64,000 nucleotides of DNA, from assembly GCF_963921235.1 (NCBI RefSeq), contig NC_086097.1:100504001-100568000 (forward strand), read 5' to 3'. Below, piece after piece: positions 3,619-47,903 of the stretch. How positions within the stretch are numbered: the stretch's first letter is position 1; the number at the start of each line of letters is the position of its first letter. The stretch is from Mobula hypostoma (lineage: Eukaryota). Made by a program: the position numbers and the translations under genes. The notes under the pieces are model-generated. The model ran no database searches, was not told where the DNA came from, and saw nothing but the letters and a program-made list of their open reading frames with translations.

Positions 3619-4763
3619 TGTAACGCTTAGGACTATCGACTCACGTTTGTCTAGGGAAAACCCCATCCTCCCGTCAAATCATGCCTCACGTTTGCGTAGA
3701 TGCTGTGTAAAGCACCCCGGTACAAACTCACACATAAAATATCAGACAGCACACAAGGTATGATTAACTGATTACACTTTATAGATCTTAATGTGACTAT
3801 ATGGTTGATAGAGATACAAATCTACAGAATCTCCGGAGGGGAAGGCCCCAAGCCCTCGGCTTTGCTTGTTGCTCGGCGGCTGGGGCGGGGTCGAAGCGCT
3901 CGGCAGAGATGGTGCTCGGTGCTCAGTGTTGGAGGGCTGGTCGGAGGCTCGAAGTTTTTGGACAGACTCAGAGTCGGCTGCGGTCAGGTGCTTCTAATGC
4001 ATCAGCAAGTTTGTGGTGCTTGGAAGTTCATGGCAGGGAGAGGTTCTCCCTTCTACCGTCTGCGTGAGATGATGGGGCTGTCGGGACTTTGAGACTTCTT
4101 TTTATCGTGCCCATGGTCTGATCTTTATCAAATTACGCTATTGTTTTGCACTATTGTAAGTATATGTTATAATTATGTGGTTTTGTCGGTTTTAGTCTTG
4201 GTTTGTTCTGTGTTTCTGTGATATCTCTCTGGAGGAACATTGTATCATTTTTTAATGCATGCATTTCTAAATGACAATAAACGAGGACTAAGTGTCCTCA
4301 TAATCTACTCTACTCTAATCTAAATACAAAAGGAAAAGAAAAAGGCGCCAAACTTATCAGAGTTCAACCAATTCGTCCACAACCGTTGGAGCTCAATTAA
4401 CGGAGTCTTCTCTCCACCATTCGATCTCCTCCAACCTCCTCGACCCTCCAACTGGGACCAACCATGGTGATCTACCAGAGCGCATCCAGCACTTCCTTCC
4501 TCTTCATTCTTCCTCGCTGAAAAACCCCCAAGCCTGCGCAAACTAATAGCTTTCACACAGACAGAAAGAATAACATCTCTTCCAGTGGTTAGCAAACGAA
4601 TACAAGTCCCGTTATCACTAATTATAACCCAAACATGCTGCTACAGAGAACCTTACCTCATCAGTGAACATTACAGAGAAGCCATTTCATTTTAACACTG
4701 TGGAGAAGCCATTTCATTATTAGCAGTTAGCAGTTAGCAGTTAACATTACTGAGAACCCCACA
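3619..4763 (-). repeat. 3' LTR of Gypsy element 1 (contains a ~500-bp insertion)
   Basis: Begins tgtaacgct, ends gagaaccccaca; colinear with 8789-9433 apart from 3822-4321. Confidence 0.95.
3822..4321 (+). mobile_element. Non-autonomous retroelement (SINE-like or LINE 3' UTR) inserted in the 3' LTR
   Basis: Absent from the partner LTR; ends with AATAAA followed by a (TAATC/TACTC)n tail; AAAT duplicated on both sides. Confidence 0.75.
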
Positions 4764-4776
4764 TTCTGCCCCCACC
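4764..4776 (-). other. Polypurine tract of Gypsy element 1
   Basis: Minus strand reads GGTGGGGGCAGAA immediately before the 3' LTR. Confidence 0.8.
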
Positions 4777-4792
4777 GAATTTAGTCATGCCT

Positions 4793-6650
4793 TCATGACG
4801 TTCGGATAATTTGCCAACCCTTCCTGCAAAACACAGAGCCCAATCCAAGTGCAGAAGGCAGTGACACACTGTAACTCCCCAAAACAGTATAGATCACACC
4901 ATGATCCCCAGGTGCTACATAGGCCAATTTATCTGGGGGGTTCCTACTTCTCTGTGACCTGCGTACCCCCTCTTCTAACTCTTCCACCTCAGACACTACG
5001 GGGGACCCTTTGGAGCTACGGGGTGAACCTTCCCGCGAGGGGTCACTCAAACCCCTCCGCACCCTGGAATATTCTGTCTCTTGTTCAGGCCCCACTTCCT
5101 CTCCTCCAGAGTCCTGCTGTATGTCCAGCTGCCCACCCATAGCCCCCCTCACCTCACCTGATGCAGTGGGAGAAGGGCCTGGAGTCCCTTCCCCCGTCAC
5201 GGGGGAGTTAACGAATGGCAGCATGTACCATACATCCAAATCATTATCCTCTGAATCAGTATCCCTTTCAGGGGCTGGGCCCGGCCCAGGCTCCTTCGCG
5301 GTGGGCTCTTCCCTCGTCCCGCACTTCCGCAGAGTCCTCGTACTAGGGGTAGACTCCAAGTTGGGCTCTTGGTCTACCTGCACCTCTTGGCTCGGGGCAA
5401 CAGGTGGTTCCAATGGAGAATCTTGACAGGCCCCTTCCCGTCCTCAGGCCTCACCTGGAAAACCGACAGGTTTGGCATCTGACTTTCCACCACATAGGGT
5501 GCGGCCGCCCAGCGGTCAGCCAACTTGTGCTTTCCAGGTAGCCCCAAATTCCTTATGAGGACTCGGTCACCCGGCAGGACCTGGGAGAACTTCACTTTTT
5601 GATCATACCTTCTCTTATTTCCCCAATTCTGCTTAGCGGCTGCCACCCCAGCCAATTCGTAAGCCCTTTTCAGCTCTCTCCTCATATCAGACACATACTT
5701 CAGATAGTGCTTCGGCGGTATGTCACCCGCGTCAGTCCCGAAACAGAGGTCAGTGGGCAACCTTGCCTCGCGCCCAAACATCAGATAATAGGGCGAATAC
5801 CCAGTAGCCTCATTGCGTATACAGTTGTAACAGATGCCCAATATGTTGACTCCACCTGCTCTTTTTGCTGATCTTCAGAGTATGTCTAGCAAAGTCCAAT
5901 TAAACCTCTCAGGTTGTGGATCGCCCTGCAGGTGATAGGGCGTGGTCCTCGATTTCTCAACTCCCAGCATGTCCAGTAACTCATAGATGAGCTTACTCTC
6001 AAAATCCCGTCCCTGGTCACTATGTATCTGCCGGGGAAGGCCATAATGCACAAAATACTTCTCCCATAACACTTTCGCCACTGTTGTCGCCCTCTGGTCC
6101 TTGGTAGGAAAAGCCTGAGCATATCTAGTGTAGTGGTCCGTGATGACTAAGACATTCGCTGTGTTGCTGGCATCAGGTTCTATTGACAGGAAATCCATAC
6201 ACACCAGGTCCAGGGGCCCTGCACTCTGCAAGTGGGACAAAGGAGCGGCCTACACAGGCAGTGTCTTCCGGCGTGTGCAGCCAATGCACGACTTAAGTAC
6301 TCTTCAGTCTCCAACTTCATTCGAGGCCAGTAAAATCGGTCTTTGAGCAATCCATAGGTCTTCTCCACCCCCAAATGTCCAGACTCATCGTGCAGTGACT
6401 TCAACACAATCTTCCGATACTTCACAGGCAGGACCAACTGCCAACACCAAGGTTGGTCCGGGGGTGACGTTACCCGGTATAAAACCTGTTTCCTTAACTT
6501 CAACCGAGGCCATTCCCTCAGTAATGGAGGCACTGAAGCGTTTCGTCTTCTCCACCCACGCCATATCCCCCTTCTCCACCGCGTACCAAATGGTGCCAAT
6601 GTGCGGGTCACCTCGCTGAGCAGCTGCCACTTTCCCCGGACTCAATTCCA
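4793..6650 (-). pseudogene. Gypsy integrase (frameshifted)
   Basis: Zinc-binding region LHDESGHLGVEKTYGLLKDRFYWP; core DLVCMDF...IHSDQGRDFES...PERFN; TGYSPYYLMFGRE; RRSQRSRNPPDKL tail; split across ORFs 6180-6611, 5875-6240, 5374-5841, 4793-5413. Confidence 0.95.
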
Positions 6651-6759
6651 GCAGCTGTTTGGTCTTCAGAGCAGTCAGCTCACAGTAAACTGGGCATTGT
6701 CAGAAACACCCAATGGGTCCACTGCGCGATATGGCATCTCCTTTTCCTCAGCCTTCTCT

Positions 6760-7310
6760 GTGAAAGGTGATTTTTCTCTTCGTGGTGTTCCTGACAACCA
6801 CTGCCATCCTGTTCACCTGTACCACCGAGGGCCTCTGCACTTCGGGCCTCACCAGCATCCCAGACGGAAATCGCGACTCCCCCTCGAGGTCTTCTGGGGC
6901 GTCCACTAAAAGGGCCTTGCCATCAGGCACTCAAGGAAATCTGGGGGTTCCCATCACTCTCGCCACTTTCCCGGATCTCATTACCTTGGGCTTCGACTGG
7001 TGCACCACACAGTTCCTCGTTTAAATTCAGTATCTGACCCAGGGTGGCTCTGCACTTCTCAAAAGCAGCCGGAAACATTGGGTGCACAGCCCAGGTCTCA
7101 AAAGTTCTCATCCGCCCTCTCCTGACAGGTCCCCCATGAGCCTCCACACCACAGGGGTGTTGGTCCCCACCAGAATTGACGCACCACCCATCTCAACCGG
7201 TTCCGGACAAACCAGCACTAACGTCTCCAGAACTTCAGACATCCCACCTTGGCTTCTGAAAACTCCAGCCTCACAGACAAATACCCGTCATACGGATAAT
7301 CACCAGCACT
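6760..7310 (-). pseudogene. C-terminal half of retropepsin protease plus post-protease region
   Basis: Reads DYPYDGYLSVRLEF...ETLVLVCPEPVEMGGASILVGTN; no D-T/S-G active-site motif is visible upstream. Confidence 0.6.
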
Positions 7311-7314
7311 GACC

Positions 7315-8718
7315 TCACTGGGTCTCCTCTAAGTTTCCCGACACCTCTCCCTGCTTGGATGCCCGGGGACTCGCTCTCCGAGGGGCTCCCTGCTGCTCAC
7401 ATTCCCGCCGGAAGTGCCCCTCTTTCCCGCAGTTATAGCACACGCTACCGGCTACTCCTCTTCTCATGGACCCCTCCCCCCCGCCTCTCGCAGCCCTCTG
7501 CGCTGTCTGTCCCCTGGGGGAGGGGCCTTCCCTACCGACCCCTCAGTTATCAGCCTGGCCACCATCTCCTTTATCAATTTCCGGGTGGAGCCGGCCCCAC
7601 TCACTTCACCACCAGGGGCTACACCTGAGGATTTCACCCCACTGACAGGGTCCTCCCGCAGCCTGAAGGAGTTCTCATCCCCCCCCTCACCGCGGCCTCA
7701 ACACGTTCTTATCCCCCCTCACGTCTTTGAACAGCTGAACGAACGTCGGAGGGGGGCACATTTTATAGGACTGCCGGAGACTCCAAGCAATCTTGTCCTC
7801 AGCCTGGGCACCCCTAACTCCCTGAGCCATCCTTAATTGATCCACCTTTTCAGCCTGAATGACCCCCCCCACCCAGCGCCAGAGCCCCCCAAGCCGTCTC
7901 TCTAGCTGAAAGAGGTACGCGGAGAGCTTCTCACCCTTCTCCTGACGCATGTTTTGAAACTCCCCGAGGAGCTCTCGGTCAACCGAAAAGCACTTTCCAA
8001 AGCCTGCAGGTAGTCATTCCGAGTGACCGAAGGCTGGTTAACCTTTACGTCTCACACTACCCCAGCTGCCACTCCCCGCAAACTTTCAACCAATCTCTGT
8101 CGCTTTTCCTCATCCGAGCACTGCCACTCACTTAACAACTGCGACATTTGCTCTACCCATGTCTCATAATCCTCGTCACCTTCGGGGGTGGGTGTTATCC
8201 CCAAGAAAATTCTTATCTTCTGGAGGGGCCCCTCTATCCTTCTCACGAGGGAGGTAATTGCAGATGCCAACTCGGAACTCTCTCCTTTCGCTGGGGAATG
8301 GGAACTAACCAAATTTTCCAAATCTGACCACACCTTCCCTTCATCCCTCAGTACCAAGAGAATTTGTTCCCTAAGATCCCCACCCTCATCCGCTGGTGAC
8401 TCAGCTCGCTGAGCTCTGGCCCCCCCTCCCCGACTATTTGCAGGCTCCATGGTCCTGCCTCCCCGGGACACCAATCTCCTCCGGCAACTCTGCCCCTCCT
8501 ATGTCCTCACTTGTCTGCACCAACACTATGTCTGTACCTGCCTCAAAATCAAAGTTTCACGATACAATTTCCACTTTGCCAACCGCTTTAACCGTACTCA
8601 AACCTCGAAGTAACACATCATCCAATACATACACTGGTCTCCACCCCCCAAACACACATGCCTTGCTCACTGGCACGCTCACAGCTGCATACCATTGCCG
8701 AAATGCGGCGGCTGCCAT
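7315..8718 (-). pseudogene. PNMA-like Gag (capsid plus CCHC zinc knuckle), frameshifted
   Basis: IRIFLGITPTPEGDEDYETWVEQ...WQCSDEEKRQRLVESLRG; QEKGEKLSAYLFQLE; CYNCGKEGHFRREC at ~7400-7441; ATG at 8718. Confidence 0.9.
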
Positions 8719-8766
8719 CACCACTCTACTTTAAACAGCGTGGTCACACAGCATCCACAGAATACA

Positions 8767-8784
8767 ATCCCGGACGAGCCCCCA
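8767..8784 (-). other. Primer-binding site complementary to tRNA-Pro
   Basis: Minus strand TGGGGGCTCGTCCGGGAT, the 18-nt tRNA-Pro PBS known from murine leukaemia virus, 4 nt from the 5' LTR. Confidence 0.9.
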
Positions 8785-8788
8785 CAAA

Positions 8789-9433
8789 TGTAACGCTCAG
8801 GGCTATCGACTCACGTTTGTCTAGGGGAAACCCCGTCCGCCCGCCAAACCATGTCTCACGTTTGCATAGATGCTGTGTAATGCCCCCAGGTACAAACACA
8901 CACATAAAATATCAGACAGCACACAAGGTACGATTAACTGATTACACTTTATAAATCCTAATGTGACTATATGGTTAATAGAGATACAAATACAAAAGAA
9001 AAGAAAAAGGTGCCAAATTTATCAAAGTTCAACCAATTCATGCACAACCTTTGGAGCTCAATTAATGGAGTTTTCTCTCCACCATTTGATCTCCTCTGAA
9101 CTCCTCGACCCTCCAACTGGGACCGACTACAGTGGTCTACCAGAGCGCGTCCAGCACGTCCTTCCTCTTCGTTCTTCCTGGCTGAAAACCCCACAAGCCC
9201 GTGCAAACTAATAGCTTTCACACAGACAGAAAGAATAACATCTCTTCCATTGGTTAGCAAATGAATACAAGTCCCATTATCACTAATTATAACCCAAACA
9301 TGCTGCTACAGAGAACCTTACCTCATCAGTGAACATTACAGAGAAGCCATTTCATCTTAACACTGCAGAGAAGTCATTTTATTATTAGCAGTTAGCAGTT
9401 AATATTACAGTTAATATTACTGAGAACCCTGCA
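8789..9433 (-). repeat. 5' LTR of Gypsy element 1
   Basis: TG...CA, 645 bp, adjacent to the PBS. Confidence 0.95.
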
Positions 9434-9680
9434 TAAAGATCATGGGTCTATAGCTTCTTATTTCTATTTCCCTTCTTAAGAAAGGAAGACTATGAACTGT
9501 TCTCCAGTCCTCTGGGGTTTTGCCTTTAACTAAAGAAGAAACAAAGGTGTCTTGTCAAATCCCCAGCAATCTCATTTCTTGCCTCTATCAAAAACCTGGA
9601 ATAATGCCCATCAGGCCCTGGGATCATATTGACATTAATATTCTTCAACTGAGTCAACACCTCTTCCTTGATATCAACAT

Positions 9681-9915
9681 TAATACTTTCAGTAATATTT
9701 GAACAATCTTGTAAATACATTGTTTGATTAAGTATTTGCTGCTGTTTATATAATTCATTATAGCTATATGTAAAAATACGTAAATTGCATACATTATGAT
9801 GCTGCCACGTGATACGTGCATGCTTTGCATAAAGTAAACACCAAGTTAGATTCGCATTCCTGGCTCTTTTTTTCTTTTAATTAGTTTAATATTTTGAGGG
9901 TTACAAAACACAACA
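9681..9915 (+). repeat. 5' LTR of Gypsy element 2 (first ~10 nt missing)
   Basis: Homologous to 14531-14765, 17142-17377 and 35944-36086; ends CAACA. Confidence 0.75.
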
Positions 9916-10236
9916 GTCTATTTTTAAAATGAATGCAAGACGATTACCTACCTATTGAAGCACAGCGAGATGCTCAAGTTCAAACAAAGTACAGTGAGAA
10001 ATGGTCATTAAAATAAGCGTAGCATGTATTTTTTCTTTGGAGCAGCATGTTTTCTTCACAGTAAGAAAGAAACAATTGTATTTAAAAAAAAGGGCAGAAA
10101 ATGGAAGAATTCACAGGTTCATAAACAATGAGTACTGGGAGACAATAATCATTAGAAATGAACAGAAATGGCTGGCTACATCATAAAGAATGATGCACTT
10201 AGTTACACAACAGATAACTGGATATTGTATACGGAG

Positions 10237-10557
10237 ATGTTGCTGGGACTGGAGAACCTGAGTTATATGGAAAGATTTGATAAGTAAGGACTGTATTCCT
10301 GAGAATGTAGAAGATTGAGGGGAGATTATGAGGGGTATAGATAGGGCAAATGCAAGCACTCTTTTTCCACTGAGGTTTGGTGGGACTACAACCAGATGTC
10401 ATGGGTTAAGGGTGAAAGGTGAAAGGACTAAGGGAACATGAAGAGAAACTTCTTCACGCAGAGGATCGTGTGAGTGTGGAATGAGCAGCTAGCACAAGTG
10501 GTACTGTGAGCTCAATTTCAAAATTGAAGAGAAGTTTGGGCAGATATATGGATGGTA
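10237..10557 (+). mobile_element. CR1 3' fragment (continues 13490-13617)
   Basis: CR1 ORF2 C-terminal remnant; (CTATGACT)n tail at ~13600-13617; split by a younger CR1. Confidence 0.75.
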
Positions 10558-13475
10558 GAAACATAGAAACATAGAAAATAGGCGCAGGAGTAGGCCATTC
10601 GGCCCTTTGAGCCTGCACTGCTATTCAGTATGATCATGGCTGATCATCCAACTCAGAACCCTGTACCTGCCTTCTCTCCATACACCCTGATCCCTTTAGC
10701 CACAAAGGCCATATCTAACTCCCTCTTAAATATAGCCAATGAACTGGTCTCAACTGTTTCCTGTGGCAGAGAATTCCACAGATTCACCACTCTCTGTATG
10801 AAGAAGTTTTTCCTCATCTCGGTCCGAAAAGGCTTCCCCTTTATCCTCAAACTGTGACCCCTCGTTCTGGACTTCCCCAACATCGGGAACAATCTTCCTG
10901 CATCTAGCCTGTCCAATCCCTTTAGAATATTATATGTTTCAATAGGATCCCCCCTCATTCTTCTAAATTCCAGCGAGTATAAGCCTAGTCGACCCAGTCT
11001 TTCATCATATGAAAGTCCTGCCATCCCGGGAATCAACCTGGTGAACCTTCTTTGTACTCCCTCTATGGCAAGAATGTCTTTCCTCAGATTAGGGGACCAA
11101 AACTGCACACAATACTCTAGGTGTGGTCTCACCAAGGCCTTGTACCACTGCAGTAATACCTCCCTGCTCCTGTACTCGAATCCTCTTGCTATGAATGCCA
11201 GCATACCATTCGCCTTTTTCACTGCCAGCTGTACCTGCATGCCCACTTTCAATGACTGGTGTATAATGATACCCAGGTCTCGTTGCACCTCCCCTTTTCC
11301 TAATTGGCCACCATTTAGATAATAATCTGTTTTCCTGTTCTTGCCACCAAAGTGGATAACCTCACATTTATCCACATTAAGTTGCATCTGCCATGAATTT
11401 GCCCACTCACCCAACCTATCCAAGTCACCCTGCATCCTTTTAGCATCCTCCTCACAGCTAACACTGCCGCCCAGCTTCGTGTCATCCGCAAACTTGGAGA
11501 TGCTGCATTTAATTCCTTCATCTAAGTCATTAATATATATTGTAAACAACTGGGGTCCCAGCACTGAGCCTTGCGGTACCCCGCTAGTCACTGCCTGCCA
11601 TTCTGAAAAGATCCCATTTATTCCCACTCTTTGCTTCCTGTCTGCCAACCAGTTCTCTATCCACATCAATACCATACCCTCAATACCGTGTGCTTTAAGT
11701 TTGCACACTAATCTCCTGTGTGGGACCTTGTCAAAAGCCTTTTGAAAATCCAAATATACCACATCGACTGGTTCTCCCCTATCCACTCTACTAGTTACAT
11801 CCTCAAGAAATTCTATGAGATCGTCAGACATGATTTTCCTTTCACAAATCCATGCTGACTTTGTCCGATGATATCACCACTTTCCAAATGTGCTGTTATC
11901 ACATCTTTGATAACTGACTCCAGCATTTTCCCCACCACCGATGTTAGGGTAACCGGTCTATAAATCCCCGGTTTCTCTCTCCCTCCTTTTCTAAAAAGCG
12001 GGGTTACATTAGCCACCCTCCATTCCTCAGGAACTAGTCCAGAATCTAAAGAGTTTTGAAAAATTATCACTAATGCATCCACTATTTCTTGGGCTACTTC
12101 CTTAAGCACTCTGGAATGCAGGCCATCTGGCCCTGGGGATTTATCTGTCCTTAACCTAACACTACCTCCCTACTAACATGTATTTCCCTCAGTTCCTCCA
12201 TCTCACTAGACCCTCAGTCCCCGACTATTTCTGGAAGATTATTTATGTCCTCCTTAGTGAAACAGAACCAAAGTAGTTATTCAATTGGTCTGCCATGTCC
12301 TTGTTCCCCATGATCAATTCACCTATTTCTGACTGTAAGGGACCTACATTTGTTTTAACCAATCTTTTTCTTTTCACATATCTATAAAAGCTTTTACAGT
12401 CAGTTTTTATGTTCCCTGCCAGTTTTCTCTCATAATCTTTTTTCCCTTTCCTAATTAAGCCCTTTGTCCTCCTCTGCTGGACTCTGAATTTCTCCCAGAC
12501 CTCAGGTGAGCCACTTTCTCTGGCTAATTTGTATGTTTCTTCTTTGGAATTGATACTATCCCTAATTTCCCTTGTCAGCCACGGGTGCACTACCTTCCCT
12601 GATTTATTCTTTTGCCAAACTGGGATGATCAATTGTTGTAGTTCATCCATGTGATCTTTAAATGCTTGCCATTGCATATCCACCGTCAACCCTTTAAGTA
12701 TCATTTGCCAGTCTATCTTAGCGAATTCACGTGTCATACCTTCAAAGTTACCCTTCTTTAAGTTCAGAACCTTTGTTTCTGAATTAACTATGTCACTCTC
12801 CATCTTAATGAAGAATTCCACCATATTATGGTCACTCTTACCCAAGGGGCCTCTCACGACAAGATTGCTAATTAACCCTTCCTCATTGCTCAATACCCAG
12901 TCCAGAATAGCCTGCTCTCTCGTTGGTTCCTCGACATGTTGGTTCAGAAAACCATTCCGCATACATTCCAAGAAATCCTCTTTCTCAGCACCTTTACCAA
13001 TTTGGTTCACCCAATCTATATGTAGATTGAAGTCACCCATTATAACTGCTGTTCCTTTATTGCACGCATTTCTAATTTCCTGTTTAATGCCAGCCTCAAC
13101 CTCACTACTACTGTTAGGTATCCTGTACACAACTCCCACCAGTGTTTTCTGCCCCTTAGTGTTATGCAGCTCTACCCATATCGATTCTACATCCTCCCGG
13201 CTAATGTCCTTCCTTTCTATTGCGTTAATCTCCTCTCTATCCAGCAATGCTACCCCACCTCCTTTTCTTTCATGTCTATCCCTCCTGAATATTGAATATC
13301 CCTGAATGTTGAGCTCCCATCCTTGGTCACCCTGGAGCCATGTCTCTGTGATCCTAGCTATATCATATTCATTAATAACTATCTGCACTTTCAATTCATC
13401 CACCTTGTTATGAATGTTCCTTGCATTGACACACAAAGCCTTCAGGCTTGCTTTTACAACACTCTTAGCCCTTAT
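10558..13475 (-). mobile_element. CR1 LINE with nearly complete ORF2 (AP endonuclease plus RT), 5'-truncated and frameshifted
   Basis: ORF 12243-13436 has endonuclease motifs (ITETW, MGDFN, SDH); ORFs 11813-12109 and 10653-11831 have RT motifs (YLDFQKAFDKV, GVPQGSVLGP, KFADD); (CTATGTTT)n tail. Confidence 0.97.
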
Positions 13476-13685
13476 ACAATTATGTTGAAAAGTAGGGGTA
13501 TGGTGGGCTATGGTCAGGTTTCGGTTGATGGGACTAGGCAGTTTAAATGGTTTGGCCTAGACTAAATGGGCTGAAAGGCCTGTTTCTGTACTGTACTTTT
13601 CTATGACTCTATGACTCCAAGAACCTATAATGGAGAAAAGGTAACTCCTGTCGGAATGATATTCATAACAGTGAAATAAAGGCCA

Positions 13686-13864
13686 TAGTACCATAAGACA
13701 TAGGAGCAGAATTAGGATATTTGGTCCATCGAGTCTGCTCCACCATTTCATCATGGCTGATTTAATTTTCCTCTCAGCCCAGTCTCCTGCCTTCTCCCCG
13801 CATCCCTTCATGCCCTGACCAATAAAGAATCTATCAAACTCTACCTTAAATGTACATAAAGACT
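13686..13864 (-). mobile_element. Short CR1/SINE 3' tail fragment
   Basis: accataagacataggagcagaattagg... is the antisense of the tail seen at 27250-27286 and 60680-60733; another copy at ~16095-16165. Confidence 0.65.
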
Positions 13865-14234
13865 TTAAGCAAGAAGAGAATCCAAGGAGTTTCAGGAAAG
13901 TTGCAAGCATCTGGATTTTGTGAGTATAAAGAACTAGAATCTTCTCTATATGCGTTAAGGTTATTGCATGAACTTCAAGTGGGAGACAAAAAGCTGCTTG
14001 TAAAAGTAGATGCAAAGACCAAAGCCCAGCTGCATGAATGGAAGGCCAAAAAGAAAGTAGTCAATGGAGATATGAGAACAAGATTTTGAGATGATGTTGT
14101 GGATGAGGAAACCAGTAGGAAAGATCAGATCGAAAGGGAGCAATAGAAGGATTCATGAGAATACTCCAGTGGACTAAATGCACCTTCCCAAGATCAAGAT
14201 GCACAAACTAGAAGAAGAAAAAGGAGAAGAAAGG
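13865..14234 (+). pseudogene. RBM25: RBM25 (RNA-binding protein 25) partial retrocopy: RRM C-terminal half and downstream region
   Basis: LSKKRIQGVSGKLQASGFCEYKELESSLYALRLLHELQVGDKKLLVKVDAKTKAQLHEWKAKKK, then past a stop and frameshifts DEETSRKDQI / KGAIEGFMR / EYSSGLNAPSQ; matches recalled vertebrate RBM25 (WKRVQGASGKLQAFGFCEYKEPESTLRALRLLHDLQIGEKKLLVKVDAKTKAQLDEWKAKKK...KGAIEVLIREYSSELNAPSQ). Confidence 0.92.
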
Positions 14235-14530
14235 TGGTTACTGCTGTCTGAACCACTTCCTGCAGTCTCAGAGTCAATCCCACGGAGGAGGCCCCAGGAC
14301 CTGAGACTCACAGCCACGTCTCACCTGACAAGCAGAGTGATCTCCCTTGTCAGGAAAGATGCTATCCCACAAGAGTAAGAAAGCCTCCATAGTGATTAAA
14401 TCTTCAGGCCTGATTGGGACATTTTAAAAATTACTATGCTGTGGATGTCTGTATAGTAGTTGTATTATCAGCGTATACAGTTGCAATGCATTTTATATTG
14501 AGTTGGAGTTTATAACTAAGCAGGGAGGAG

Positions 14531-14765
14531 TGTTGTGTATTTAATATTTCAGTAATATCGTAAATCTGTTGTTAGATTAAGCATTCTTTGTTGATTATAT
14601 AATTCATTATGGTTATGTGTAAAAATACCTGAATTGTAAATGTCATGGCGTTACCGTGATACATGTGCACCTTGCTTAGAGTAAACACAAAGTTAGATTT
14701 GTATTCCCGGCTCACTTATTTTTCTTCCAATTAGCCTCATGTTTTGAGAGTTATGATACATAGCG
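14531..14765 (+). repeat. 3' LTR of Gypsy element 2
   Basis: Starts TGTTG right after purine tract AAGCAGGGAGGAG; homologous to 9681-9915. Confidence 0.8.
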
Positions 14766-16444
14766 ACCATGCCCTAGAATGTCAACGTATCCCTCCTTGA
14801 TCTCATGGTTCTCTGGGTCCTTATCCTGAGTGAATACTGGCTTAAGCACAGATTTAACACCTTGCCCACTTCCTTCTGCTTCAGGCATAAATTCCCTGCT
14901 TTGCCTTTCAGTGATCCTACACTCTTCTTTTTGATATATGTACAAAATTCCTTGGATTCTCCTTAATACTATTCCTCAAGGATACTTCAGGGATTCTTGT
15001 CCTAATCCTGGGGATTTATTTAACACAATCGTGTTTGATGTGCTTCTGGAAGTATTAAATCCAGACCCCTCCTCCCATTTCCACCTGCCAAACACCTTCC
15101 CACTCTTTGAAACTCATAAATGCAAGTGTTTACAGAATTTGGAAAAATATATACATTTCTTCAATTGCCCTGCTGACTAGTCTAACAGCGACCAGGTGAT
15201 TAAATATCAACACCTGGTGATTGCACGATAACCTCCCCACAGGTGGAAACTGTCTTGTGCTTGGCCTCAAGTCCATCTGGCACTGAGCCCAGACCCCCAA
15301 AGCTCAGGAAACATTCTGATTCTCCCGATCTCCATCTGCCCCTCCCCCCTCCATACCACATCTAGGCCTGGTGCTCCTTAGAGCCAGAGCCAATACAGCA
15401 CAGAAACAGGCCCTTTGGCCTATCCTGGCCATGATCACTGTCAGATGCCCACCCACATTCGTTCCAACCTTGCCTCTGCACCTTCAGGATCAGGCCCTAT
15501 AAGGCAACAGGTTTCCGCACTGCCCTTTGTACCCTCCCTACACTACAGATGAGAACACCCTGCAGCTTGAAACTTCCATATTCTAGACAACAATTATATC
15601 TCAACTTTTAAAAATGTTGTGGGAAAGACTTCATTTGGAGCCCTGCCTCTCTAACCACAGCTGTTTCAGTTCAAAGATACTTGAGAAGTTCAGGCTCCAG
15701 TAGAACAAAACTCTGAAGGTTTTTAGGCCCAGTTTTAGCAGAAAGAGATGGAAAAGACTGACTCCTGGCTGTTTAGTAGACACTGAGTTACAGGGAGGAT
15801 TTACATACATACAAAACAATCTACATCACCATGTTTCATAGCACAAAGTTACATCACCTGAACATTTCTCAAGAAACATGAGTTGGAAAAGAATGATGCG
15901 TTTATTTACTTCCTTTTTTCTCATCACTTCCATGAGAAGGGATTTTATTCCTAACTCCAATATTCGAATGATGATTTGAGAAGCCTGTGAGGGTAAAACA
16001 AGGGGATCGTGTGTAGCAGGTTGACAGTTAGAAGCTGTGTGTTGTAGCACAGTGAATAAGGAAAAACAAGAAGTCAACAATGCAATGACCCAGATATGAG
16101 ACCAAAAGACATGGGAGCAGAATTAGGCCATTTACTCCATCGAGTCTGCACCACCACTCAATCATGCATAAAAACATGAATATCTGAAATTATGCATCAA
16201 AGTAAGGAGAAGGTCATATCAGTTGTGGCCCACCAAACCTGTAGATCCAGGAAGAACAACTTAGAAGATGCATGTGTGATTCTTCACATAACTCTGGGTG
16301 AAAAGAAAATTCAGACAATGGATGAAGTATGTACACAACTGACTTTAGCTTGAACAGAGGCATGCTGGCCAATGGTATACTGTACTGTTAAGGAGGAAAC
16401 ATTCGTCCCATCATTAGATGTAACATAAAGCTGTAATTAAGAAG

Positions 16445-17141: not shown

Positions 17142-17377
17142 TGTTACGCTTTGTATCTTCAAAGCATTAAACTAATTCAAAGTAGGACAAGAATGTGAGT
17201 CTAATTTCATGTTTACTTCAAGCGAGGTGTGCCCGTATCACGTGGTAGTATCATGATGTATGCAATTCACGTATTTTTAATATAACCATAATGAATTATA
17301 TAAACAACAAAGATGCTCAATCAAACAATATATTTACAAGATTACTCAAATAATACTGAAAAATTAAATATACAAGA
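17142..17377 (-). repeat. Solo LTR of Gypsy family 2
   Basis: Reverse complement of the 9681/14531 LTR over its full length; no internal sequence. Confidence 0.75.
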
Positions 17378-17900: not shown

Positions 17901-19216
17901 TCATAGTCATAGTCATAGTCATACTTTAATGATCCCGGGGGAAATTGGTTTTCGTTACAGTTGCACCATAAATAATTAATAGTAATAAAACCATAAATAA
18001 TTAAATAATAATATGTAAATTATGCCAGGAAATAAGTCCAGGACCAGCCTATTGGCTCAGGGTGTCTGACCCTCCAAGGGAGGAGTTGTAAGGTTTGATG
18101 GCCACAGGCAGGAATGACTTCCTACGACGCTCTGTGTTGCATCTCGGTGGAATGAGTCTCTGGCTGAATGTACTCCTGTGCCCACCCAGTACATTATGTA
18201 GTGGATGGGAGACATTGTCCAAGATGGCATGCAACTTGGACAGCATCCTCTTTTCAGACACCACTGTCAGAGAGTCCAGTTCCATCCCCACAACATCACT
18301 GGCCTTACGAATGAGTTTGTTGGTTCTGCTGGTGTCTGCAACCCTCAGCCTGCTGTCCCAGAACACAACAGCAAACATGATCGCACTGGCCACCACAGAC
18401 TCGTAGAACATCCTCAGTATCGTCCGACAGATGTTAAAGGACCTCAGTCTCCTCAGGAAATAGAGACGGCTCTGACCCTTCTTGTAGACAGCCTCAGTGT
18501 TCTTTGACCAGTCCAGTTTATTGTCAATTCGTATCCACAGGTGTTTGTAATCCTCCACCATGTCCACACTGACCCCCTGGATGGAAACAGGGGTCACCAG
18601 TGCCTTAGCTCTCCTCAGGTCTACCACCAGCTCCTTAGTCTTTTTCACATTAAGCTGCAGATAATCCTGCTCACACCATGTGACAAAGTTTCCTACTGTA
18701 GCCCTGTACTCAGCCTTATCTCCCTTGCTGATGCATCCAGCTATGGCGGAGTCATCAGAAAACTTCTGAAGATGACAAGACGCTGCGCAGTAGTTGAAGT
18801 CCGAGGTGTAAATGGTGAAGAGAAAGGGAGACAAGACAGTCCCCTGTGGAGCCCCAGTGCTGCTGATCACTCTGTCGGACACACAGTGTTGCAAGCACAC
18901 GTACTGTGGTCTGCCAGTCAGGTAATCAAGAATCCATGATACCAGGGAAGCATCCACCTGCATCGCTGTCAGCTTCTCCCCCAGCAGAGCAGAGCAGATG
19001 GTGTTGAACGCACTGGAGAAGTCAAAAAACATGATCCTCACAGTGCTCGCTGGCTTGTCCAGGTGGGCGTAGACACGGTTCAGCAGGTAGACAATGGCAT
19101 CCTCAACTCCTAGTCGGGGCTGGTAGGCAAACTGGAGGGGATCTAAGTGTGGCCTGACCATAGGCCGGAGCAGCTCCAGAACAAGTCTCTCCAGGGTCTT
19201 CATGATGTGGGAGGTT
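17901..19216 (-). mobile_element. Rex1/Babar-type LINE, 5'-truncated, RT still open
   Basis: ORF 18049-19203: DPLQFAYQP, FFDFSSAFNTI, GAPQGTVLSP, KFSDD; (ATGACT)n tail at 17901-17921. Confidence 0.9.
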
Positions 19217-24272: not shown

Positions 24273-26811
24273 AGACATAGACATCGAAAATAGATGCAGG
24301 CGTAGGCCATTCGGCCCTTCGAGACTGCACCGCCATTCAGTATGATCATGGCTGATCATCCAACTCAGAACCCTGTACCTGCCTTCTCTCCATACACCCT
24401 GATCCCTTTAGCCACAAGGGCCATATCTAACTCCCTCTTAAATATAGCCAATGAACTGGCCTCAACTGTTTCCTGTGGCAGAGAATTCCACAGATTCACC
24501 GCTCTCTGGGTGAAGAAGTTTTCCCTAATCTTGGTCTTAGAAGGTTTCCCCTTTATCCTCAATCTGTGACCCCTCGTTCTGGACTTCCCCAACATTGGGA
24601 ACAATCTTCCTGCATCTAGCTTGTTCAATCCCTTTAGGATTTTATATGTTTCAATAAGATCCCCCCTCAATCTCCTAAATTCCAATGAGTATAAGCCTAC
24701 TTGATCCAGTCTTTCATCATATGAAAGTCCTGCCATCCCAGGAATCAATCTGGTGAACCTTCTTTGTACTCCCTCTATGGCAAGGATGTCTTTCCTCAGA
24801 TTAGGGGACCAAAACTGCACACAATACTCCAGGTGTGGTCTCACCAAGGCCTTGTACAACTGCAGTAGTACCTCCCTGCTCCTGTACTCGAATCCTCTTG
24901 CTATGAATGCCAGCATACCATTGGCCTTTTTCACCGCCTGCTGTACCTGCATGCCCACTTTCATGACTGGTGTATAATGACACCCAGGTCTCGATACACC
25001 TCCCCTTTTCCTAATTGGCCGCCATTCAGATAATAATCTGTTTTCCTGTTTTTGCCACCAAAGTGGATAACCTCACACTTAACCACATTAAATTGCATCT
25101 GCCATGAATTTGCCCACTCACCTAACCTATCCAAGTCACCCTGCATCCTCTTAGCATCCTCCTCACAGCTAACACTGCCGCCCAGCTTTGTGTCATCCGC
25201 AAACTTGGAGATGCTGCATTTAATTCCCTCGTCTAAGTCATTAATATATATTGTAAACAACTGGGGTCCCAGCACTGAGCCTTGCAGTACCCCACTAGTC
25301 ACTGCCTGCCAATCTGAAAAGGTCCTGTTTATTCCCACTCTTTGCTTCCTGTCTGCCAACCAATTCTCTATCCACATCAATACCTTACCCCCAATACCGT
25401 GTGCTTTAAGTCTGCACACTAATCTCCTGTGTGGGACCTTGTCAAAAGCCTTTTGAAAATCCAAATATACCACATCGACTGGTTCTCCCCTATCCACTCT
25501 ACTAGTTACATCCTCAAAAAATTCTATGAGATTCATCAGACATGATTTTCCTTTCACAAATCCATGCTGATTTTGTCCGATGATTTCACTGCTTTCCAAA
25601 TGTGCTGTTATCACATCTTTGGTAACTGACTCTAGAATTTTCCCCACCGCTGATGTTAGGCTAACCGGTCTATAATTACCCGGTTTCTCTCTCCCTCCTT
25701 TTTTAAAAAGTGGGGTTACATTAGCCACCCTCCAATCCTCAGGACCTAGTCCAGAACCTAAAGAGTTTTGAAAAATTATCACTAATGCATCCACTATTTC
25801 TTGGGCTACTTCCTTAAGCACTCTGTGATGCAGACCATCTGGCCCTGTGGATTTATCTGCCTTTAATCCCTTCAATTTACCTAACACCACTCCTCTACTA
25901 ACAAGTATTTCCCTCAGTTCCTCCATCTCACTGGACCCTCTGTCCCCTACTATTTCCAGAAGATTATTTATGTCCTCCTTAGTGAAGACAGAACCAAAGT
26001 AGTTATTCAATTGGTCTGCCATGTCCTTGCTCCCCATAATCAATTCACCTGTTTCTGTCTGTATGGGACCTACATTTGTCTTAACCAACCTTTTTCTTTT
26101 CACATATCTATAAAAGCTTTTACAGTCAGCTTTTATGTTCCCTGCCAGTTTTCTCTCATAATCTTTTTTCCCCTTCCTAATTAAGCCCTTTGTCCTCCTC
26201 TACTGGACTCTGAATTTCTCCCAGTCCTCAGGTGAGCCACTTTTTCTGGCTAATTTGTATGCTTCTTCTTTGGAATTGATACTATCTCTAATTTCCCTTG
26301 TCAGCCACGGGTGCACTACCTTTCTTGATTTATTCTTTTGCCAAACTGGGATGAACAATTGTTGTAGTTCATCCATGCGATCTTTAAATGCTTGCTATTG
26401 CATATCCACCGTCAACCCTTTAAGTGTCATTTGCCAGTCTATCTTAGCTAATTCACGTCTCATACCTTCAAAGTTACCCTTCTTTAAGTTCAGAACCTTT
26501 GTTTCTGAATTAACTATGTCACTCTCCATCTTAATGAAGAATTCCACCATATTATGGTCACTCTTACCCAAGGGGCCTCTCACGACAAAATCGCTAATTA
26601 ACCCTTCCTCATTGCTCAATACCCAGTCTAGAATAGCCTACTCTCTAGTTGATTCCTCGACATGTTGGTTCAGAAAACCATCCCGCATACATTCCAAGAA
26701 ATCCTCTTCCTCAGCACCCTTACCAATTTGGTTCACCCAATCTATATGTAGATTGAAGTCACCCATTATAACTGCTGTTCCTTTATTGCACACATTTCTA
26801 ATTTCCTGTTT
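24273..26811 (-). mobile_element. CR1 LINE, same family as 10558-13475, 5'-truncated within the endonuclease
   Basis: ORFs 24961-26103 and 24365-24964 carry the RT motifs; near-colinear with 10558-13086. Confidence 0.97.
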
Positions 26812-28080
26812 AAGAAAGGATGTGTTGTCATTGGAGAGAGTTCAGAGGAGGTTCACGAGGATGATTCCAGGAATGAAGGGGTTATGTAAGGAGCTTTTGA
26901 TGGCTCTGGGCCTGTACTCACTGAAATTTAGAAGAATGAGCGGGGATCTCAATGAAACCTACCAATGATGAAAGGCCTAGAGAGAGTGGATATGGAGAGG
27001 ATATTTCCTATGGTGGGGGAGTCTAGGACCAAAGGATACAGCCTCAGAATAGAGGGATGTCCATTAGAATGGAGGTGAGGAGGAATTTCTTTAGCCAGAG
27101 GGCAATGAAACTGTGGAATTTGTTGCTACAGACAGTTGTTGAGGCCAGGTTACTAGGTGTATTTAAGGCGGTGATTAATAGGTTATTGATTAGTCAGGGC
27201 TGAAAGGTTACGGGAAGAAGGCAAGAGAATGGGGTTTAGAGGGGATCAGCCAATTCTGCTCCTATATCTTTTGGTCTTATGGTCTGATACATTCCGAGGG
27301 AAATAAAACCTGAAAATCATAAAAACAGCTAATGCTGGAGACCTAAAATAAAAACAGAAAATGCTGGAAACTCTCAGCAGGTCAGGTGACACCCATGGGA
27401 GGAAAACCAGAGTTAACATTTCAGATCAGAACAAAACCCATTCTGAGTTATGGAAGGAAGGGGATAATATTCACTCAGCACCAGAGTTTGGTGCTGAACC
27501 GAGGTCGTTCTCACCCGAAGAGAGACCAGAAGTTTGCAAAAATAACCCACTGCACCACTGGTAGGGTGCAATTTGTGTAAGAAACATTATCCATGTAAAT
27601 CAAACACAATAAGGTAAGATGACCTGCAGGTCAACTCGAATTTAAAGCCATTACCCTCAGTATTAAGGTAGCAGTTTGATTTTGGGCTTGAGATGACTGG
27701 ATTCTCTGGAAGGTGCTGTGGTCACTGAAGTCTCAGAGCATCATTGTGGATTGCCTGTCCGGTTTCTGGCAGCCTTATCAATCATGCTCTCTCCATCATA
27801 AGGTCAGAAGTAGGGTGGACCACTGCTGACAGAGGCAGCTCACCAACCTCATCTCCACAAACTCCTGTTCCTTGACTTTTCCTGGTGAGGAGCACAGAGA
27901 CCGCACCCACCCTCTGCAGCCCGATGTGCACACTGTTTCTGATTCGGATTCTGACACTGTGCTATACACATATCACCAACAGCTTGTCCTGGTCCACCTA
28001 GTGGACACTACAGTCAAGAAAGCACACCACTAACTCTGCTTCCTTATGCAATGCCGTGGGAAGGATTTTACTGCTAACGA

Positions 28081-30603: not shown

Positions 30604-32222
30604 GGGGTGGCACCATAGCACAAAACTTAACAGTGCCAGCGGTCTGCGTTCAATTCCCGCTGCTGCCTGTAAGGAGTTTGTACGTTCTGCCGTTCACCAT
30701 GTGGGTTTCCTCCGGGTGTTCTGGTTTCCTCCAGGTGCTCCAATTTCCTCCAGGTGCTCCAGTTTCCTCCAGGTGATCCGGTTTCCTCGATGTGCTCCAG
30801 TTTCCTCCAGGTGATCCAGTTTCCTCCAGGTGATCCAGTTTCCTCCAGGTGCTCTGGTTTCCTCGATGTGCTCCGGTTTCTTCCAGGTGATCCGGTTTCC
30901 TCCAGGTGCTCTGGTTTCCTCCAGGTGCTCCAATTTCCTCCAGGTGCTCCGGTTTCCTCCAGGTGCTCCAGTTTCCTCCAGGTGATCCGCTTTCCTTGAT
31001 GTGCTCCAGTTTCCTCCAGGTGATCCAGTTTCCTCCAGGTGCTCTGGTTTCCTCGATGTGCTCCGGTTTCTTCCAGGTGATCCGGTTTCCTCCAGGTGAT
31101 CTGGTTTCCTCCAGGTGCTCCAATTTCCTCCAGGTGATCCAGTTTCCTCCAGGTGCTCTGGTTTCCTCCAGGTGCTCCAATTTCCTCCAGGTGATCCAAT
31201 TTCCTCCAGGTGCTCTGGTTTCCTCCAGGTGCTCCGGTTTCCTCCAGATGCTCTGGTTTCCTCCAGCTGATCCAATTTCCTCCAGGTACTCTGGTTTCCT
31301 CCAGGTGATCCAATTTCCTCCAGATGGTCTGGTTTCCTCCAGATGATCTAATTTCCTCCAGATGCTCTGGTTTCCTCCAGGTGCTCTGGTTTCCTCCAGG
31401 TGCTCCGGTTTCCTCGATGTGCTCCAATTTCCTCCAGGTGATCCGGTTTCCTCCAGGTGATCCGGTTTCCTCCAGGTGCTCCGGTTTCCTCCAGGTGATC
31501 TGGTTTCCTCTGGGTGATCCAGTTTCCTCCAGGTGCTCTGGTTTCTTCCAGGTGATCCGGTTTCCTCCAGGTGCTCTGGTTTCCTCCAGGTGCTCCAATT
31601 TCCTCCAGGTGCTCCGGTTTCCTCCAGGTGCTCCAATTTCCTCCAGGTGATCCAATTTCCTTCAGGTGCTCCAATTTCCTCCAGGTGATCCAATTTCCTC
31701 CAGGTGCTCTGGTTTCCTCCAGGTGCTCCGGTTTCCTCCAGATGGTCTGGTTTCCTCCAGGTGATCCAATTTCCTCCAGGTACTCTGGTTTCCTCCAGGT
31801 GATCCAATTTCCTCCAGATGGTCTGGTTTCCTCCAGATGATCCAATTTCCTCCAGGTGCTCCGGTTTCCTCCAGGTGCTCCAGTTTCCTCCAGGTGCTCT
31901 GGTTTCCTCCAGGTGCTCCAATTTCCTCCAGGTGCTCCAGTTTCCTCGATGTGCTCTGGTTTCCTCCGGGTGCTCCAGTTTCCTTGACGTGCTCTGGTTT
32001 CCTCCAGGTGCTCCAATTTCCTCCAGGTGATCCAATTTCCTCCCACCATTGAAAGATGTACCAGTTGGTAGGTTAATTGGCCATTGTAAATTGTCCAGTG
32101 ATTAGTCTAGGATTACATTGGGGGTTGCTGGGCACAGCAGCTTGAAGGACTAGAGGGGCCTATTCCGTGCCATATCTCAATAAATAAACAAAGAAACAAA
32201 CAAATAGATAAATAAGTAAATA
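30604..32222 (+). mobile_element. V-SINE with internal minisatellite expansion
   Basis: SINE head 30604-30703 and SINE 3' half 32044-32222 with (TAAA)n tail flank the array; compare the intact copy at 33655-33935. Confidence 0.85.
30704..32043. repeat. 19-bp minisatellite, about 70 copies (GGTTTCCTCCAGGTGCTCC and variants)
   Basis: Direct tandem periodicity of 19 nt over ~1340 bp. Confidence 0.97.
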
Positions 32223-35943: not shown

Positions 35944-36086
35944 TTGTATTTAATATTTCAGTAATGTTTGAGTAATACTGTAAATATATTGTTTGATTAA
36001 GCAGTCTTTGTTGTTTAAGTAATCAGTACAGGTTATATGTAAAAGTATGTGAATGACATATGTCACCATGCCACCACATCATAACA
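35944..36086 (+). repeat. Internally deleted solo LTR of Gypsy family 2
   Basis: Matches the LTR 5' half, ends ATAACA, flanked by AGGG on both sides inside a CR1. Confidence 0.7.
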
Positions 36087-37664: not shown

Positions 37665-38980
37665 TAGCTATGGCACACTTCGACCACAGCCTACCGGTCA
37701 ACCTTGACGCTTTGCAATTCACTTACCGGAGCAACAGGTCAACAGCAGATGCCATCTCTCTGGCCCTACATTCCTCCTTAGAACACCTGGAGAATAAAGA
37801 CACGTACGTAAGGCTCCTTTTCATTGTCTACAGCTCTGCCTTTAATACCATCATTCCAATAAACTGATTCCGAAGCTCCAGAACCTGGGCCTTAGCACTC
37901 AGATCTGCAGCTGGATCTTCAACTTCCTCTCAGACAGGACCCAGGCTGTAAAAATAGGGGACAAGCTCTCCTCTACAATCACGCTGAGCACCGGTGCCCC
38001 AGAAGGCTGTGTGCTCAGCCCCTGCTGTACTCACTGTACACCCATGATTATGTAGCAAAGTTTCCATCAAATTCAATATATAAGTTTGCTGATGACACAA
38101 CAATTGCAGGCCGTATCTCGGGTAATGATGAGTTTGAGTATAGAGAGGAAATTAAGAACCTGGTGGCATGGTGCGAAGACAATAACCTATCCCTCAACAT
38201 CAGCAAGACGAAGGAATTGGTTGTTGACTTCAGAAGGAGTAGCGGACCGCACGACCCAATTTACGTCGGTGGTGCGCAAGTGGAACAGGTCAAAAGCTTT
38301 AAGTTCTTCGGGGTCAATATCACAAATGACCTGACTTGGTCCAACCAAGCAGAATCCACTGCCAAGAAGGCCCACCAGTGCCTTTACCTCCCGAGAAAGC
38401 AAAAAAAATTTGGCCTGTCCCCTAAAACCCTCACTAATTTTTATAGATGCACTGGAGAAAGCATCTGGGGTGCATCACAACCTGGTATGGAAGTTGTCCT
38501 TTCCAAGACCGGAAGAAGCTGCAGAAGATCGTGAACATGGCACAGCACATCACACAAACCAATCTTCTGTCCTTGGACTCACTTTACACCGCATAGTGTC
38601 GGAGCAGTGCTGCCAGGATAATCAAGGACATGACTCACCCAGCCAACACACTTTTCGTCCCTCTTCCCTCTGGGAGAAGGCTCAGGAGCTTGAAGACTCG
38701 TACGGCCAGATTTGGGAACAGCTTCTTTCCAACTGTGATAAGACTGCTGAACGGATCCTGACCTGGATTGGTTTGTTCTCTCCAAATATCCGGACCTGCA
38801 TCTCGGTTTTTTTGCACTATCTTACTTTCCATTTTTCTATTTTCTATTTATGATTTATAATTTAAATTTTTAATATTTACTATCGATTTGTAATCCAGGG
38901 AGTGGGAAGCGCAGAATCAAATATCGCTCTGATGATTGTGCGCTCTAGTATCGATTGTTTGGCAACAATAAAGTATAAAG
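37665..38980 (+). mobile_element. Rex1/Babar-type LINE, 5'-truncated, frameshifted
   Basis: Same family as 46335-47903; TAAAGTA tail. Confidence 0.9.
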
Positions 38981-46334: not shown

Positions 46335-47903
46335 AGATGGCGTCCCAGGACGGGTTCTCCGGGCCTGTGCAAGCAAGCTAGCTGGAGTGTTTGCTGACAT
46401 CTTCAACTGCTCCTTTCTTCAGTCTAAGATCCCCTCATGTTTTAAGAAGGCAACGATAATCCCAGTGCCGAAGAAGAGCAAGGTGGCATGCCTGAATGAC
46501 TATTGACCTGTGGCTCTGACATCAATTGCTATGAAGTGCTTCGAGTGATTAGTTATGGCACACATCAACCACAGCCTACCGGTCAACCTCGACGCTTTGC
46601 AATTCGCCTACCGGAGCAACAGGTCAATGGCAGATGCCATCTCTCTGGTCCTACATTCCTCCTTAGAATACCTGAAGAATAAAGATGCATACATAAGGCT
46701 CCTTTTCATTGACTACAGCTCTGCCTTTAATACCATCATTCCAAATAAACTGATTCCTAAGCTCCGAAACCTGGGCCTTAGCACTCAGATCTGCAGCAGG
46801 ATCTTCAACTTCCTGACAGACAGGACCCAGGCTGTAAAAATAGGGGACAAGCTCTCCTCTGCAATCACTCTGAGCACCGGTGCCCCACAAGGCTGTGTAC
46901 TCAGCCCCCTGCTGTACTCACTGTACACCCATGATTGTGTAGCCAAGTTTCCATCAAACTCAATATATAAGTTTGCTGATGACACAACAATTGTAGGCCG
47001 TATCTCGGGTAATGATGAGTTTGAGTACAGAGAGGAAATTAAGAACTTGGTGGCATGGTGCGAAGACAATAACCTATCCCTCAACGTCAGCAAGACAAAG
47101 GAATTGGTTGTTGACTTCAGAAGGAGTAGCGGACCGCATGACCCAATTTACATCGGTGGTGCGCAAGTGGAACAGGTCAAAAACTTTAAGTTCCTTGGGG
47201 TCAATATCACAAATGACCTGACTTGGTCCAACCAAGCAGAGTTCACTGCCAAGAAGGCCCACCAGTGCCTTTACTTCCTGAGAAAACTAAAGAAATTTGG
47301 CCTGTCCTCTAAAACCCTCACTAATTTTTATAGATGCACCGTAGAAAGCATTCTTCTACGGTGCATCACAACCTGGTATGGAAGTTGTCCTGTCCAAGAC
47401 CGAAAGAAGCTACAGAAGATCGTGAACACAGCGCAGCACATCACACAAACCAATCTTCCGTCCGTGGACTCACTTTACACCGCACGCTGTCGGAGCAGTG
47501 CTGCCAGGATAATCAAGGACATGACCCACCCAGCCAACAGACTTTTCACCCCTCTTCTCTCCGGGAGAAGGCTCAGGAGCTTGAAGACTCATACGGCCAG
47601 ATTTGGGAACAGCTTCTTTCCAGCTGTGATAAGACTGCTGAACGGATCCTGACCGGGATCTGGGCCCTACCCTCCAAATATCCGGACCTGCTTCTCGGTT
47701 TTTTTGCACTACCTTATTTCCCATTTTTCTATTTTCTATTTATGATTTATAATTTAAATTTTAATATTTACTAATTTTAACTATTTTTAATATTTTGAAT
47801 ATTTGTAATCCAGGGAGTGTGAAGCGCAGAATCAAATATCGCTGTGATGATTATACGTTCTAGTACCAAATGTTTGGTGACAATAAAGTATAAAGTATAA
47901 AGT
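46335..47903 (+). mobile_element. Rex1/Babar-type LINE, 5'-truncated
   Basis: ORF 46555-47652: [39 protein letters not shown]; (TAAAGTA)n tail. Confidence 0.92.

Follow-up and report, generated by a model that had tools for sequence, protein, structure and literature searches.

How does a piece of host coding sequence come to lie between the two ends of a retrotransposon, and does it belong to a single copy or to a whole family? A locus of Mobula hypostoma raises this question. In the window analysed here (the whole stretch of 64,000 nt of contig NC_086097.1, 100,504,001-100,568,000; positions below are window positions), a fragment of RBM25 lies inside an element bounded by two long terminal repeats (LTRs) and interrupted by pieces of CR1, a long interspersed nuclear element (LINE). 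An earlier interpretation of the same DNA, made from its letters without database searches (hereafter the sequence-only reading), had proposed that RBM25 is carried by this LTR element. Our analysis agrees, as the fragment is spliced, sense-oriented, devoid of poly-A and joined to the 3′ tail of the element in other, diverged copies. We consider it probable that the locus is a dead copy of a multi-copy, non-autonomous LTR family with RBM25 cargo, captured by a template switch and amplified in trans. The family is likely a non-autonomous Gypsy of Mag type.

RBM25 cargo in this and other copies

The best match of the cargo is to a shark, as would be likely for a cartilaginous-fish host: it covers residues 81-205 of an RBM25-like protein of Heptranchias (P0001; 72%, E 1e-48) over 13865-14233, one nucleotide less than the interval first proposed (13865-14234). 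It is an internal piece, from near the 5′ end of a coding region of ~800 residues, and it lies in the sense orientation of the element; its reading frame slips after about 14130. Pfam searches with six local frames returned only a weak RRM_1 match (E 0.074), and a PDB search only distant RRM proteins.

Comparison with proteins of other species provided insights into the form in which this piece was acquired. Among 120 RBM25 proteins from the database, six depart from the normal frame exactly after the residues 'NG'. Four of them proceed with V, which is what reading through an intron would give; in one a later exon follows directly, and the sixth goes on with sequence that is unrelated. The window sequence continues in frame across this point. 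Since it runs across an exon border inferred from database proteins (14068/14069), the piece is, by this comparison, derived from spliced mRNA. A second candidate border near 13909 found no support among the database RBM25 proteins and is not claimed. The Heptranchias protein departs from the frame after residue 207, which places the end of the piece about two codons short of the following exon border. We found no poly-A in 13865-14300, where the longest A run is 5, in line with the earlier claim. The 3′ anchoring, poly-A and own target-site duplication (TSD) of a LINE-made processed pseudogene are all absent from the RBM25 piece.

We then asked how widely the cargo is distributed. Contigs of four sequencing runs were aligned at 80% likeness to 13540-14860; X1 and X5 are DNA runs, X15 and X21 are RNA by guess only, and contig counts per position have a ceiling value of 128. 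At 15 RBM25 places (among 40 of 266 rows of differing places), a letter other than that of this copy is carried by 57-126 contigs of X1 and by 72-127 of X5. The summed depth over RBM25 and tail is ~400-3300 times that of the unique flank in X1, a ratio that is not a copy number, and it stays above the unique level at the RBM25-tail junction. The family likely numbers hundreds of copies or more. Among the 32 pieces listed, four bridge 14234/14235 with at least 31 letters on each side and are 12.7-14.1% different from this copy: one from the DNA run X5 (record 30) and three from X15 (records 14-16). A fifth bridging piece, with 24 letters on the tail side, was left uncounted.

Collectively, these results indicate that the RBM25 cargo belongs to a multi-copy family as a fixed feature and is not private to this locus. 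On the evidence of the diverged copies that share the RBM25-tail junction, capture preceded amplification; the proposal that the capture took place at this locus has to be given up in favour of a family-wide cargo. Seven codons of the piece depart from the conserved protein, and 4/7 have their changed base among the places where other contigs differ; those changes are therefore private to this copy. Joints from 14205, 14225 and 14226 to 14243/14244 (among the 15 best of 818) amount to 12 contig counts over three runs, and because these joints differ, the A/G tract at the RBM25-tail junction varies among copies.

Two joints of run X21 reach a depth of 151, one from 14080 to 14182 and one from 14226 to 14244, the latter with a shorter arm of 34 letters. 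They suggest a single RBM25-tail chimeric contig; the other X21 pieces listed have depths of 2-13, and the contig was not seen in X15. Meanwhile, contigs of organism B (run X5) contain the 3′ LTR-flank junction of this insertion, with 8 differences over the 274 bp of 14587-14860. Because organism B shares this junction, the insertion predates at least one species split. In organisms C-G, 0.22-0.28 of sampled words were present.

Anatomy of the element

The features of the locus are collected in Table 1. The two LTRs, announced as a pair of 235 bp each, align over 9693-9903 and 14542-14753 with an identity of 75.5% across 216 bp, and their local score of 215 is far above the maximum of 49 in 300 shuffles. 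Their 235 bp have different causes: the 5′ LTR is short of its beginning and the 3′ LTR of an internal 11-nt repeat unit. This unit occurs in the other three LTR copies of the window. Two of these lie outside the element: one at 17142-17373 (-), likely a solo LTR with a degenerate flanking 5-bp repeat (3/5), and a partial copy of 135 bp at 35950-36083, 75-78% identical. The two further copies in the window therefore point to a dispersed family.

Other marks of an LTR insertion were equally borne out. A tract resembling a polypurine tract (PPT), AAGCAGGGAGGAG, stands directly before the TGTTG of the 3′ LTR. The flanks AACAT and ACCAT are present and 4/5 identical. The host CR1 sequence, which had been said to rejoin across the block, is in order on both sides when compared with another CR1 copy, with a spacing of ~101 nt here and 117 nt there. 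The locus combines a short target-site repeat, collinear host sequence and a PPT before the 3′ LTR.

All three nested CR1 pieces described earlier were found, the largest with Pfam matches to reverse transcriptase (RT) and endonuclease. Without them the block measures 1523 bp, as against the estimate of ~1.5 kb. Both internal gaps of the element coincide exactly with CR1 inserts, which makes it likely that the shell of 1.5 kb results from decay and is not the mobile unit it had been taken for. LTR sequence lies on both sides of RBM25, with CR1c intervening on the 5′ side. As the sequence-only reading had cautioned, a CR1 tail abuts the cargo there, and the 5′ capture junction is lost in this copy.

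Between the LTRs, the cargo is accompanied by three stubs with a presumed likeness to Mag-type Gypsy gag, protease and integrase proteins. The pieces are present where they had been placed, and the protease-like and tail stubs are multi-copy, but their labels have no database support; the protease-like peptide, first put at 13618-13682, occupies 13620-13676. Between these putative stubs, this copy has neither an RT nor an RNase H domain, and the integrase core is missing too.

Table 1 Features of the RBM25-carrying LTR element and of the sequence that encloses it
Feature	Positions	Strand	Remarks
Host CR1 LINE open reading frame 2 (ORF2) fragment, downstream part (frame VDIKEEVL...PGPDG)	9441-9680	-	aligns to CR1 copies 25887-25783 and 55811-55671; left boundary approximate
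Left target-site repeat AACAT	9676-9680	+	
5′ LTR	9681-9915	+	without first ~11 nt (TG end) of family LTR; terminates CACAACA
Leader	9916-10167	+	no TGG-starting primer-binding site recognisable
Gag-like stub, 23 codons, putative (Mag-type)	10168-10236	+	cut at CR1a insert; without Pfam or Atlas support
CR1a, 5′ part of old 5′-truncated CR1 3′ fragment	10237-10557	+	
CR1b, young near-full ORF2 CR1 nested in CR1a	10558-13496	-	94% identical to 24275-26813; Pfam RVT_1 and Exo_endo_phos
CR1a, 3′ part, tail repeat at end	13497-13616	+	
Protease-like stub, putative, multi-copy	13617-13679	+	summed depth 8590 vs 13-28 at unique flank in X1
CR1c, old CR1 3′ tail, cuts RBM25 cargo at 5′ side	13683-13864	-	76-85% against further copies in the window
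RBM25 coding fragment, spliced and pseudogenised, from end of RRM to KKEKK run	13865-14233	+	exon border 14068/14069
A/G tract at RBM25-to-tail junction, candidate microhomology	14223-14234	+	variable among copies
Integrase C-terminal-like tail, putative, frameshifted, multi-copy	14235-14412	+	covered by 123 X1 contigs at 14249; without database match
PPT	14518-14530	+	sequence
3′ LTR	14531-14765	+	starts TGTTG; 3′ end degenerate; without one 11-nt repeat unit
Right target-site repeat ACCAT	14766-14770	+	4/5 identical to left repeat
Host CR1 ORF2 fragment, upstream part (...EGYVDILGH)	14766-15130	-	right boundary approximate

The window holds further repeats. A second, younger Gypsy-type element (4322-9429, -) adjoins the host CR1 fragment; its repeats of 443 bp (4322-4759 and 8988-9429) are 90.7% identical, and it encodes a PNMA-type gag (7687-8498) and an integrase zinc finger and core (5875-6641). 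LINE-like RT frames at 18049-19215, 37896-38534 and 46549-47652 are followed by an ALKBH8_N Pfam match, and we take them to be probably another LINE family rather than pieces of an ALKBH8 gene. A 19-bp minisatellite of about 70 copies (30704-32043) produces extended open frames, and its Pfam match to NAD_binding_8 is spurious, and arrays of a 47-bp tandem repeat with 94-96% matches occupy 58825-59079 and 62191-64000, the latter extending past the window end.

Proposed template switching and alternative origins

Based on these findings, we postulate the following course of events. RBM25 mRNA and Gypsy-element RNA would have been packaged together. Synthesis of the minus strand would have run from the LTR through the PPT into the integrase tail, jumped to RBM25 at the A/G tract, about two codons before the exon end, and later returned to the element. 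In this way an internal piece of spliced RBM25 mRNA would have taken the place of most of the founder's pol region. The chimera would have retained its cis signals (LTRs and PPT) and could have been mobilised in trans by the enzymes of an intact relative. One copy would have landed in an old CR1. CR1a and CR1c may have inserted afterwards and CR1b last, and deletions at or after the insertion of CR1a and CR1c, likely later, would have removed most of gag, the protease apart from its stub, and the 5′ portion of the cargo. An autonomous partner was not found by protein, homologue or metagenome-contig searches. In the metagenome contigs, the PPT-LTR motif occurred at 36 loci, and at none of them did the match to the element extend past 23 bases; we attribute these occurrences to chance.

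A number of observations speak against this course of events, and we weigh them here beside the alternatives that they touch. The contig evidence is drawn from the 15 best of 818 joints, the 24 best of 3588 loose ends and 40 of 266 rows of differing places, and X15, whose RNA status is a guess, supplies three of the four bridging pieces. The capture junctions are not observed directly, as this copy has lost the 5′ junction and the tract at the 3′ junction is variable among copies. One alternative is an origin without template switch, in which a LINE-made RBM25 retrocopy was inserted at the DNA level into an intact LTR founder, its ends and pol were trimmed, and the hybrid was amplified. CR1 activity is dense, with three inserts in this copy, and amplification does not separate the two routes. 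However, the RBM25 piece is internal, sense-oriented and free of poly-A, two extra deletions would be needed, and in the available text of Tan et al. (2016, Genome Res 26:1663, PMC5131818) internal mRNA pieces take the place of element ORFs as a rule. We regard this origin as unlikely.

Doubts also attach to the signals and stubs of the element. An LTR is expected to run from TG to CA, and here the inner termini alone are intact; the 5′ LTR lacks its first ~11 nt with the TG end, unlike the 3′ LTR and the copy at 17142-17373. We read the loss of the outer termini as decay, because the latter copy is near-terminal at both ends. No TGG-type primer-binding site (PBS) follows the 5′ LTR in 9916-9960, where no tRNA set was compared. 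Pfam matched none of the four stubs (0/4). Homologue searches with the tail frame were empty, and with the tail read through its frameshift with X they gave seven candidates, none at E<=1. A library of 1.84 billion proteins returned one unrelated-looking match (E 9.5e-4, 35%), and in Atlas the stubs score under 0.9. The stub queries are 20-57 residues long and decayed.

The ages of the parts are a further point of contention. Against the conserved protein, RBM25 differs at 8/138 nonsynonymous sites (5.8%, confidence interval 2.5-11%). Taking the copy at 17142-17373 as the one outgroup, the 5′ LTR has private changes in 15 of 194 columns and the 3′ LTR in 31 (p=0.026). The divergence of RBM25 is compatible with the private changes of the 5′ LTR (Fisher p=0.66) and different from those of the 3′ LTR (16%, p=0.005). 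The 5′ LTR is also nearer to the outgroup copy (18.6%) than to its own partner (24.7%). CpG decay was rejected as a cause of the distance between the LTRs, since 44/185 non-CpG sites differ. Because the 5.8% of RBM25 resembles the private changes of the 5′ LTR, the age of element and cargo would fit a single unit. The excess divergence of the 3′ LTR may be due to chance, a different subfamily or later conversion.

This asymmetry speaks for a mosaic, in which a 5′ half (LTR and gag stub) and a 3′ half (RBM25, tail and LTR) stem from two related elements that were joined after insertion, through ectopic recombination or gene conversion. The absence from the 3′ LTR of the 11-nt unit and the repeats at both internal gaps point in the same direction. 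Yet a single collinear host CR1 and the 4/5 target repeat enclose both LTRs, the asymmetry test rests on one outgroup and 194 columns, and simple joining of two halves does not predict an RBM25 age nearer to the 5′ LTR than to the 3′ LTR. We hold a mosaic to be improbable. The claim that the block inserted as one unit is weakened by the asymmetry between its LTRs.

The surroundings of the cargo invite another explanation. CR1c and RBM25 are arranged head to head, and together they are flanked by a 5-bp repeat, AAAGG (13678-13682 and 14230-14234). They could be two cDNAs of a one-off LINE event, primed from opposite ends of a break (twin priming), with AAAGG as the target repeat; the divergence of RBM25 (5.8%) also suggests a younger age than half the distance between the LTRs (about 12%). 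A repeat of this type is, however, expected by chance in 6.5% of trials. The RBM25-tail junction occurs in diverged copies elsewhere, and more than 100 contigs cover RBM25 positions, by which this explanation is largely refuted; we give it hardly any credence. Around RBM25 by itself there is a 4-mer repeat at most. The statement that RBM25 has no TSD of its own survives in this narrower form, although the flanks of CR1c plus RBM25 are not strictly clean.

Lastly, the two large gaps at the CR1 inserts need later deletion, because long target-site deletions are absent (0/25) from the LINE insertions in wild-type cells described in the available part of PMC2666801. The rarity of such deletions favours the notion that the mobile unit was already a shell of 1.5 kb, into whose joints the CR1 pieces inserted cleanly or which captured them. 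The length of the block after CR1 removal agrees with it, as does the orientation of CR1a in the sense of the element. Against it, two inserts would have to strike two pre-existing joints, and a joint from 13679/13682 to 13865 is not among the best 15 of 818. Moreover, among the 32 pieces listed, three begin at 13864; in two of these, a further 18 and 127 upstream letters differ from CR1c. A mobile shell of this size is very unlikely in our view. We retain the template switch, followed by amplification in trans and by decay of this copy, as the probable history of the locus.

Comparison with known systems

We found no published report of an RBM25-LTR family in Creative Commons papers of PubMed Central or in bioRxiv, a scope that leaves most subscription papers outside. 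The closest survey, a preprint on cartilaginous-fish retrocopies (bioRxiv 10.64898/2026.06.26.734816), credits them in its available text to LINEs and selective filtering, requires a terminal exon junction, and names MIPOL1, SUDS3, SDF2L1, SLU7 and ZNF276 as top parents. Neither RBM25 nor Gypsy occurs in its main text (0 occurrences), and its supplements may list RBM25. The LINE-made processed pseudogenes that it describes are, like the RBM25 piece, intron-free copies of host mRNA in the genome. From what the available text says of the terminal-exon-junction filter, internal pieces such as this one would likely be missed.

A bolder generalisation, which we rate as rather unlikely, is that in sharks or rays Gypsy elements have repeatedly made captured host mRNA pieces into large, long-lived families, whose cargo aided their spread or regulates the parent gene. 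If this were true, the cargo would be either host-like coding sequence that escapes silencing or a source of RNA regulating the parent gene, and the X21 contig of depth 151 would be an expressed copy. Catalogues of cartilaginous-fish retrocopies would then largely count copies of LTR families and not independent LINE events.

Among LTR elements, the Mag lineage of Ty3/Gypsy offers a comparison. In the available part of PMC3286476, LTRs measure 145-287 bp in five table rows, and a 5-bp TSD is given in 4/5. The short LTRs (235 bp) and the 5-bp target repeat of the present element are alike, whereas the RT, RNase H and integrase core that define the lineage are absent here, along with a PBS and any database match of the stubs. 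On these features, the element is a putative member of the Mag lineage.

Host gene pieces inside LTR elements have been described before. As presented in the available text of PMC5131818, maize Bs1 contains pieces of three genes, in contrast to the one internal coding piece, amplified and decayed, found here. Human HERV-K/FAM8A1, from the same source, shares a host gene piece within an LTR element and differs in being a single captured pseudogene.

The nearest relatives are the LTR-mediated retrocopies, or pseudo-LTR retrotransposons, of animals reported by Tan et al. In the text available to us, these are partial spliced mRNAs, cut at both ends and placed between two LTRs without poly-A, where they replace part of the ORFs of the element, and the chimera can be copied anew in non-autonomous form. 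Of six features that mark this class, four are found at the locus: spliced cargo, LTR flanks, no poly-A or own TSD, and re-copying. Microsimilarity at the switch points, which that text treats as diagnostic, was seen there at 25/29 junctions. The present copy is a poor specimen, being dead and having lost its 5′ capture junction. The family to which it belongs is a different matter: a block of host exons that a vertebrate likely holds in hundreds of copies would offer many independent copies of one old capture, in which junctions, age and selection on the cargo can be tested. The mechanism is already in print with Tan et al., and it is the scale that looks unusual. Their re-copied cases have few insertion sites (18 for nine fly retrocopies), as against more than 100 diverged contigs over single positions here. 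The RBM25 family adds scale and lineage to a known mechanism of capture.

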